Assembly (NCBI RefSeq): GCF_003334305.1
Contig: NZ_QOWS01000040.1
Strand: one strand, 5' to 3'
Length of the DNA: 17,427 bases
Origin: Escherichia coli
GTDB taxonomy: Bacteria > Pseudomonadota > Gammaproteobacteria > Enterobacterales > Enterobacteriaceae
Part shown: piece after piece, positions 7,781 through 8,669 of the stretch
Layout of the letters: the number at the start of each line of letters is the position of its first letter
Numbering within the stretch: the first letter of the stretch is position 1
The notes under the pieces: generated by a model
Told to the model about the DNA's origin: nothing
Databases searched by the model: none
The model's input: only the letters and a program-made list of their open reading frames with translations
Position numbers and translations under genes: made by a program

Positions 7781-7842
7781 ATTGCACAGGCCGTAAGAAC
7801 CAAACCACGACTGAATGAAACTGGACTGGCGCCAGCAAGCCT

Positions 7843-7866
7843 GTTCAGACTGGGGCTGAACTTTTC
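7843..7866 (+). terminator. Possible intrinsic terminator downstream of fecE
   Basis: GTTCAG-actgggg-CTGAAC inverted repeat followed by TTTT, about 60 bp after the fecE stop. Weak stem (3 of 6 GC). Confidence 0.3.
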
Positions 7867-8127
7867 CGGACTCTGAAAGATTACCAATACTCATCGTCCA
7901 TCCGCTTGCTTTAGGCTGACAGGTTCATAATCAACGCAAACCAGAGCTGTACAGGCTTGGGCGCGGCTTTCAAACCAGTCGTGATCACGGCAATCAATTT
8001 TGAACTCTGCTTAACGGACATTTCTGTATAACCCTTACGGCAACGAAAAACGCGAAGTTAAAATTTTAGAAACCCAAAAACGTGACATGACTAAGTTTAG
8101 ATTTCAGGGGGGGAGATCAAAAAATTT

Positions 8128-8144
8128 CGCTCTGTGCCAGAGCG
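8128..8144 (-). terminator. Possible intrinsic terminator (minus strand) in the orphan segment
   Basis: CGCTCTG-tgc-CAGAGCG perfect 7-bp inverted repeat. On the minus strand it is followed by GAAATTTTTT. Confidence 0.3.
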
Positions 8145-8337
8145 GACATTCACGGAGCTGGTTCATTACCAATGAGGTTGGGCTTTTGAGGATAAATCAA
8201 TGATCAGACGCCAACGTAAATCAAAAGCAACCCTGGAACGGAATTGCTAATCCAGTTTCTGACCATCGATTTTTCTAAAAAGTGTGCGTTTGCTACTACT
8301 TAGGTAGGTGCAGCTTTCTTAATCACCGGCAGCCACG

Positions 8338-8669
8338 TTATACAGGCCAGTTGATGGATCGATTGTTATCAATGATATCTTCATGAGTCGGTGTCTCACC
8401 CAGCTTACCGAAGCTGGCATAAAGTGAAGGCAGACGGGCCCGTCCTTCTCCCTTTTTCGCCAGAGGGAAAGCGCGAAGCATGGTGGCAGCCTCCCAGTCA
8501 CAACAATAGGATGGTGTGCACGGCTGCTGACGCCATGATTCAGCGATAGAGCCGGAAAATACGGGGTCAAAGCCGGTATCATTAACCAGAGTCATCGTGA
8601 CCTGTACTGCGGCTGGATGATCTCCTGCTACTGCAACTGCTAGGCGACCGCGGCTCCCTTCAGGTAGTC
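8338..8669 (-). other. Unassigned ORF fragment abutting the IS911-like right end (possible 3' remnant of a disrupted gene)
   Basis: An open frame of about 110 codons runs from the IS end to a stop at 8338 (…DHPAAVQVTMTLVNDTGFDPVFSGSIAESWRQQPCTPSYCCDWEAATMLRAFPLAKKGEGRARLPSLYASFGKLGETPTHEDIIDNNRSINWPV). The track ORF starts inside the IS. I do not recognise the family, and it does not read as the missing 3' part of the acuI-like gene. Confidence 0.2.

Follow-up and report, generated by a model that had tools for sequence, protein, structure and literature searches.

The 889-bp segment between fecE and an IS911 copy, at positions 7781–8669 of the 17,427-nucleotide stretch of Escherichia coli DNA analysed here (the window), is already known: it holds the catalogued pseudogene yjhV, and is neither a new gene nor a new RNA. 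Taken as a whole, the segment is very probably a non-functional combination of the yjhV pseudogene and insertion sequence debris, travelling with a fec module (fecI, fecR, and fecABCDE in the window) that is bounded by IS1 and IS911.

The same locus is present in E. coli K-12 MG1655, where yjhV lies in the KpLE2 phage-like element, with 99.7% identity over 7781–8669 (NC_000913.3 4509803–4510690) and near-identical sequence running from the fecE stop codon to the IS911 end. The K-12 yjhV annotation (4509804–4510133) corresponds to 8338–8667 of the window, the same 330-bp frame in the same position relative to fecE and the IS911 end, and RefSeq lists it in K-12 as a pseudogene (b4286) directly abutting IS911B-1. 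In the window, the minus-strand open reading frame extends from 8338 to 8751, giving 137 aa from its first ATG, with this ATG lying inside IS911 and ~110 codons (8338–8669) lying outside it. An earlier sequence-only reading of the window had placed the end of fecE at 7780, an IS911-like element from 8670, and a roughly 110-codon minus-strand frame ending at 8338 and abutting the IS, all of which are borne out, the last by the ORF listing. Its description of the segment as having no confidently assignable gene holds for 7781–8337, which carries no annotated feature in ~2,700 genomes, but not for 8338–8667, which is yjhV in K-12 and includes a PGAP coding sequence of 85 aa (8338–8595; WP_000177057.1), named either “hypothetical protein” or “NAD(P)-binding domain-containing protein”. 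The BLAST searches and the comparison with the K-12 region downstream of fecE that this reading proposed identify the segment as the yjhV locus. The features of the segment and its borders are collected in Table 1.

Table 1. Features of the segment between fecE and IS911, with positions in the window.
Feature	Position	Strand	Basis and remarks
fecE	7013–7780	+	255-aa ORF, last gene of fecABCDE; named FecE in identical E. coli loci; left boundary
Spacer directly 3' of fecE	7781–7921		Presumably fec 3' flank or further decayed debris
ISNCY-family (ISKpn21-like) transposase scrap	7922–8004	-	~25 codons, equivalent to residues 147–171 of the ISKpn21 transposase
ISKpn21 terminal/subterminal repeat-like match (CGGACATTT...)	8012–8039		Weak; collinear with the transposase scrap
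Hairpin and T-run	8118–8144	-	Terminator scan; stem at 8144–8128
Native 3' flank of the truncated oxidoreductase	8154–8337	-	Raoultella terrigena homology; lower boundary uncertain by ~20 bp
yjhV pseudogene (K-12 b4286)	8338–8669	-	K-12 annotation and alignment with intact orthologues; stop codon at 8338–8340
IS911 copy	8670–9916	-	Recognisable ends; abuts the yjhV break

Alignment with intact orthologues shows the yjhV frame to be residues 141–248 of a 248-aa FNO/STEAP-like NADP oxidoreductase, with homology to the oxidoreductases beginning at the first full codon outside IS911, a sharp boundary at the IS end. The suggestion that IS activity had destroyed a gene and left its 3' remnant here is thereby upheld, with the homology stopping exactly where IS911 starts. 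Protein searches with the frame return E. coli fragments almost exclusively, the informative exceptions being a Raoultella terrigena protein with PF03446/PF03807 domains, which in its C-terminal part matches the start of the frame at 93% identity, and fragments from other sources that extend N-terminally at the point where the window becomes IS911. In a scan of one genome per species, intact 248-aa orthologues were found in Klebsiella grimontii (locus L012, 7584–8327) and R. terrigena (locus L013, 7584–8327), with 96% amino acid and 90.8% nucleotide identity, and 93% and 86% identity, respectively, the amino acid values being over residues 141–248. A divergent HxlR-family regulator gene adjoins both. 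Compared with these loci, the window copy lacks residues 1–140 and the regulator, whilst sharing ~184 bp of 3' flank with Raoultella, and the adjacency to fecE is absent from the Klebsiella and Raoultella genomes. Neither the missing 5' part nor the HxlR regulator has a match in the complete E. coli genomes at the sensitivity of blastn, and neither was found elsewhere in the window.

More distant full-length relatives, of 244–254 aa, occur in Proteobacteria, Bacteroidota, and Actinobacteria, with the parent family forming a widespread group of FNO/STEAP-like oxidoreductases that carry an invariant SWRQQPxTPxYC motif (L012, L013, and L014–L048). The HxlR gene lies divergently beside the oxidoreductase in Klebsiella, Raoultella, and a metagenome locus (L005). 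In an NCTC assembly of R. terrigena and two metagenome/Logan contigs the orthologue is present as two overlapping ORFs with an apparent frameshift (L004 6001–6748, L005 666–1413), and the copy of R. terrigena NBRC 14941 is unbroken; the split calls may reflect assembly indel errors or independent pseudogenisation.

The extent of the loss is evident at the level of domains. Pfam F420_oxidored covers residues 2–93 of the reconstructed full-length protein, wholly within the missing part, and the Pfam search of the window ORF gives no significant domain. The N-terminal Rossmann domain with its GxGxxG motif, which characterises PF03807, lies upstream of the breakpoint, and the window frame is homologous to the C-terminal half of full-length members. 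The structures nearest to the full-length protein are those of SMa0349 (4huj), the STEAP3 oxidoreductase domain, and the F420:NADP oxidoreductases (FNO), with 4huj matched by sequence (E = 2e-9) and the FNO/NpdG/STEAP fold (PF03807; 4huj, 2vns, 5n2i) matched by the predicted fold (Foldseek E = 2e-14, TM 0.66/0.79). Unlike these structures, the parent family has an additional C-terminal helical extension of ~60 residues bearing the conserved SWRQQPxTPxYC, and the window keeps only the last two strands of the fold together with this extension. When the K. grimontii orthologue is modelled with AF2 (pLDDT 95), strands 1–5 of the Rossmann sheet occupy residues 2–126, and the stump retains only strands 148–154 and 173–178 along with the C-terminal helices, so that five of the seven sheet strands are gone. 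Because only these elements are kept, the model predicts that the stump cannot bind NADP in the manner of the family.

The junction between yjhV and IS911 is constant across E. coli. The 889-bp segment is present at at least 99% identity in 2,737 of 5,426 complete E. coli genomes (megablast), and a 201-bp query spanning the junction is fully covered in 2,628 of the 5,426, with the match in strain KL53, which has a rearranged IS, stopping within one base of the same point. With all its copies sharing at least 99% identity, the segment travels with the fec operon. The IS911 copy, an IS3-family element, reads TGTTGTGGTCAAC... at the end beside the segment and ...GGCCAAATTCAGTGTGCCACTTCA at the far end, and both halves of K-12 IS911B can be aligned to it. 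Whereas IS30D and an IS600 fragment divide the K-12 element (L003, 4126–6802), that of the window is uninterrupted, yet its transposase is annotated as frameshifted. K-12 has no sequence aligning to 9465–9582 of the window, and the DNA beyond IS911 also differs, with yjhE and yjhD found there in K-12, a polysaccharide deacetylase-capU-virK arrangement in strain SK1144, and a different arrangement again in the window. On account of these differences between K-12, SK1144, and the window, the IS911 copy appears to be a recombination junction; the yjhV-IS911 boundary would be old and fixed, with the far side of the IS a probable recombination hot spot.

The far flank of IS911 in the window is the N-terminal stump of an unrelated zinc-type alcohol dehydrogenase (ORF 9914–10291, minus strand), and in the region 8670–10291 the IS separates two unrelated gene stumps, yjhV and the alcohol dehydrogenase, on the same strand. 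The alcohol dehydrogenase found beside fecE on Klebsiella plasmids was considered as the source of this stump and rejected, as the two do not match. Beyond an IS1 copy, 10879–17342 holds an Orn/Lys/Arg decarboxylase gene flanked by genes for two basic amino acid/polyamine antiporters (genes at 11825–13294, 13399–15768, and 15843–17342); in strain A7 this cluster is followed by another IS1, giving a layout resembling a composite transposon, and the arrangement beside IS911 occurs in only 14 of the 5,426 complete genomes. At the opposite end of the window, ykiE, a gene for a 22-aa small protein (30–98, minus strand), is found upstream of fecI and has on its other side the IS1F copy of the strain A7 annotation.

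The 557-bp spacer between fecE and yjhV is a mosaic, comprising ~184 bp of gene 3' flank, an 80-bp ISNCY scrap with weak IS-end-like repeats, and ~140 bp with no assignment. The coding remnant and its flank (8154–8669) are together ~86% identical to the 3' part of the intact gene and its downstream DNA in R. terrigena, with only the first ~95 bp of the flank shared with K. grimontii. Within 7922–8004, blastn finds 80% identity over 80 bp inside the ISKpn21 transposase coding sequence; the minus strand translates to FKIDCRDHDWFESRAQACTALVCVD (tblastn, 17/25 identities, E = 5e-6), matches the NCBIfam ISNCY transposase model NF033594 (E = 1.7e-4), and has stop codons on both sides. When every short ORF of the spacer was searched against NCBIfam, this scrap was the only one matched, and the spacer has no conserved small ORF. 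A search with the scrap peptide for a closer ISNCY transposase than that of ISKpn21 gave E. coli self-matches only and did not lengthen the relic. Next to it, the 13 nt of 8012–8024 (TAACGGACATTTC) are identical to the ISKpn21 end, with a score reached in 0 of 1000 shuffles and a reverse-strand control at background, and a second, weak ISKpn21-end-like match at 8133–8150 overlaps the hairpin, its score being reached in 12 of 1000 shuffles.

The 80-bp transposase match and the weak terminal-repeat matches have the collinear order of ISKpn21 (ISNCY family, IS1202 group), which suggests, without proving, that an ISNCY element was once located downstream of the oxidoreductase gene and that 7922–8171 is its collapsed end. 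In place of the DDE transposase gene and terminal inverted repeats of an ISNCY-family element, the window has 25 transposase codons and weak end-like repeats, and only ~4% of the 2.28-kb ISKpn21 is recognisable; the remains are a relic and not an element. As for the rest of the spacer, homologues of 7781–7921 (~140 bp) are confined to E. coli fec loci and its short ORFs match no family, and ~100 bp at 8040–8127 likewise have no homologue; these two stretches weigh against the debris reading. The fec loci of Klebsiella plasmids were rejected as the source of 7781–7921, with the comparison to fec plasmids that the sequence-only reading had called for showing that homology to the Klebsiella plasmids ends at the fecE stop codon.

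A history consistent with these observations would begin with a NADP-dependent FNO/STEAP-like oxidoreductase gene located, as in Klebsiella and Raoultella, beside a divergent HxlR-type regulator. The 5' part of this gene and the regulator are gone, with the IS911 end now abutting the break. As IS911 lacks a matching 3-bp target-site duplication (its flanks are GTC at 8667–8669 and AGC at 9917–9919), a simple insertion is not the likely cause of the loss, which probably resulted from deletion or recombination mediated by the IS. The 3' flank of the gene itself survives at ~8154–8337, and beyond it are the remains of an ISNCY (ISKpn21-like) element, in the form of the 80-bp transposase scrap and possibly the end repeats. 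The Klebsiella/Raoultella-like character of the stump and flank, together with a single breakpoint in nearly all carriers, points to one assembly of the IS-bounded fec module before its spread in E. coli.

Could the spacer instead be functional, as a non-coding RNA or a fec 3' UTR, with the hairpin serving as its terminator or as an antisense shield for fecE? The minus-strand hairpin with a T-run that had been noticed at 8128–8144 is recovered by the terminator scan as the best terminator-like site in the region (5 sites against 1.2 expected). It reads CGCTCTG-GCA-CAGAGCG from 8144 to 8128, forming a 7-bp stem (5 of the pairs G-C) around a 3-nt loop with AAATTTTTTG after it, and lies just outside the Raoultella homology. 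With its minus-strand tail AAAUUUUUUG, it has the sequence features of an intrinsic (Rho-independent) terminator, predicted to face transcripts arriving from yjhV and IS911. A mildly stable fold of the minus strand (z = -2.2) and conservation of at least 99% within E. coli might also be taken as signs of an RNA. However, the plus strand folds with z = -1.15, both values being unremarkable, and the conservation is uninformative because the whole module is near-identical in E. coli. Furthermore, the spacer is a patchwork of unrelated pieces, among them the 3' flank of a foreign gene and the ISNCY transposase scrap, and 7781–8337 has no consensus promoter, the single promoter-like site (8399–8372) lying inside yjhV. 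An Rfam search of 7000–9500 at a permissive threshold gave nothing credible, with the sole Rfam 15 match being the plant miRNA model MIR169_8 (21.7 bits, where the gathering score is 107; E = 0.72). The earlier idea of a non-coding RNA locus, for which an Rfam scan had been proposed, accordingly receives no support from either the family search or the folding scores, and a functional spacer is considered very unlikely. On the favoured reading, that of a pseudogene with IS debris, the most the hairpin would do is keep transcription leaving IS911 and yjhV from running on towards fecE, which is convergent. The window lacks the “yjhV” promoter motif of Shimada et al. (CTGTCA-N16-TATAAA), which K-12 has within IS911, ~600 bp from yjhV, and which is uninformative on the stump.

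Very unlikely, in our assessment, is that the stump is a working small gene, encoding a protein of 85 aa (from the ATG at 8595) or 137 aa (from the ATG at 8751, inside the IS) with an acquired role, for example as a protein-binding module. Several observations sit well with such a gene and count against a pseudogene: the 108-codon frame is still open, it retains every one of the 16 columns that are invariant in an alignment of 26 sequences, a CDS is annotated by PGAP, and YjhV appears among the partners of AceF in one cross-linking preprint, an unverified lead. The stump is also found in half of all E. coli genomes, which would fit such a gene. The prevalence, however, is explained by linkage to fec, and this is consistent with a pan-genome study of mastitis strains (PMC11390585), in which the frequency of yjhV tracks that of the fec genes, as expected of a linked passenger. 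The dN/dS of the frame against the Klebsiella orthologue is 0.068, compared with 0.075 between the two intact orthologues; no decay is visible in these values, which are equally expected under recent truncation. As the value for the stump equals that between intact genes, the signal reflects history before the truncation, and dN/dS was set aside as uninformative on function. Against a working gene stand the absence of the entire NADP-binding domain and of five of seven sheet strands, the lack of a good Shine-Dalgarno sequence at either candidate start, and the existence of frameshifted versions of the frame on record as gene calls (P0014, with 28 member sequences, P0017, and P0035), in addition to the verdict of the K-12 curators, who treat yjhV as a pseudogene. 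The proposal of a small uncharacterised gene is for these reasons not sustained, and the stump probably has no function of its own.

Least probable of all is a co-option in which the 85–137-aa fragment would act as a stand-alone protein, or in which an RNA read through from IS911 across yjhV, stopped at the hairpin and convergent with fecE, would modulate ferric-citrate uptake; were this highly improbable scenario true, it could account for part of the association of the linkage block with mastitis strains.

With the segment read as the catalogued pseudogene yjhV and IS debris, the question it raised is closed and matters little in itself. The parent family, an uncharacterised one, comprises 244–254-aa FNO-like oxidoreductases that carry the SWRQQPxTPxYC extension and probably have an HxlR partner in most cases. 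A gene fragment is the more apt label for the 85-aa protein that PGAP annotates across thousands of genomes, and the hitch-hiking of yjhV with fec is reason to leave it out of the virulence-associated genes in pan-genome studies.
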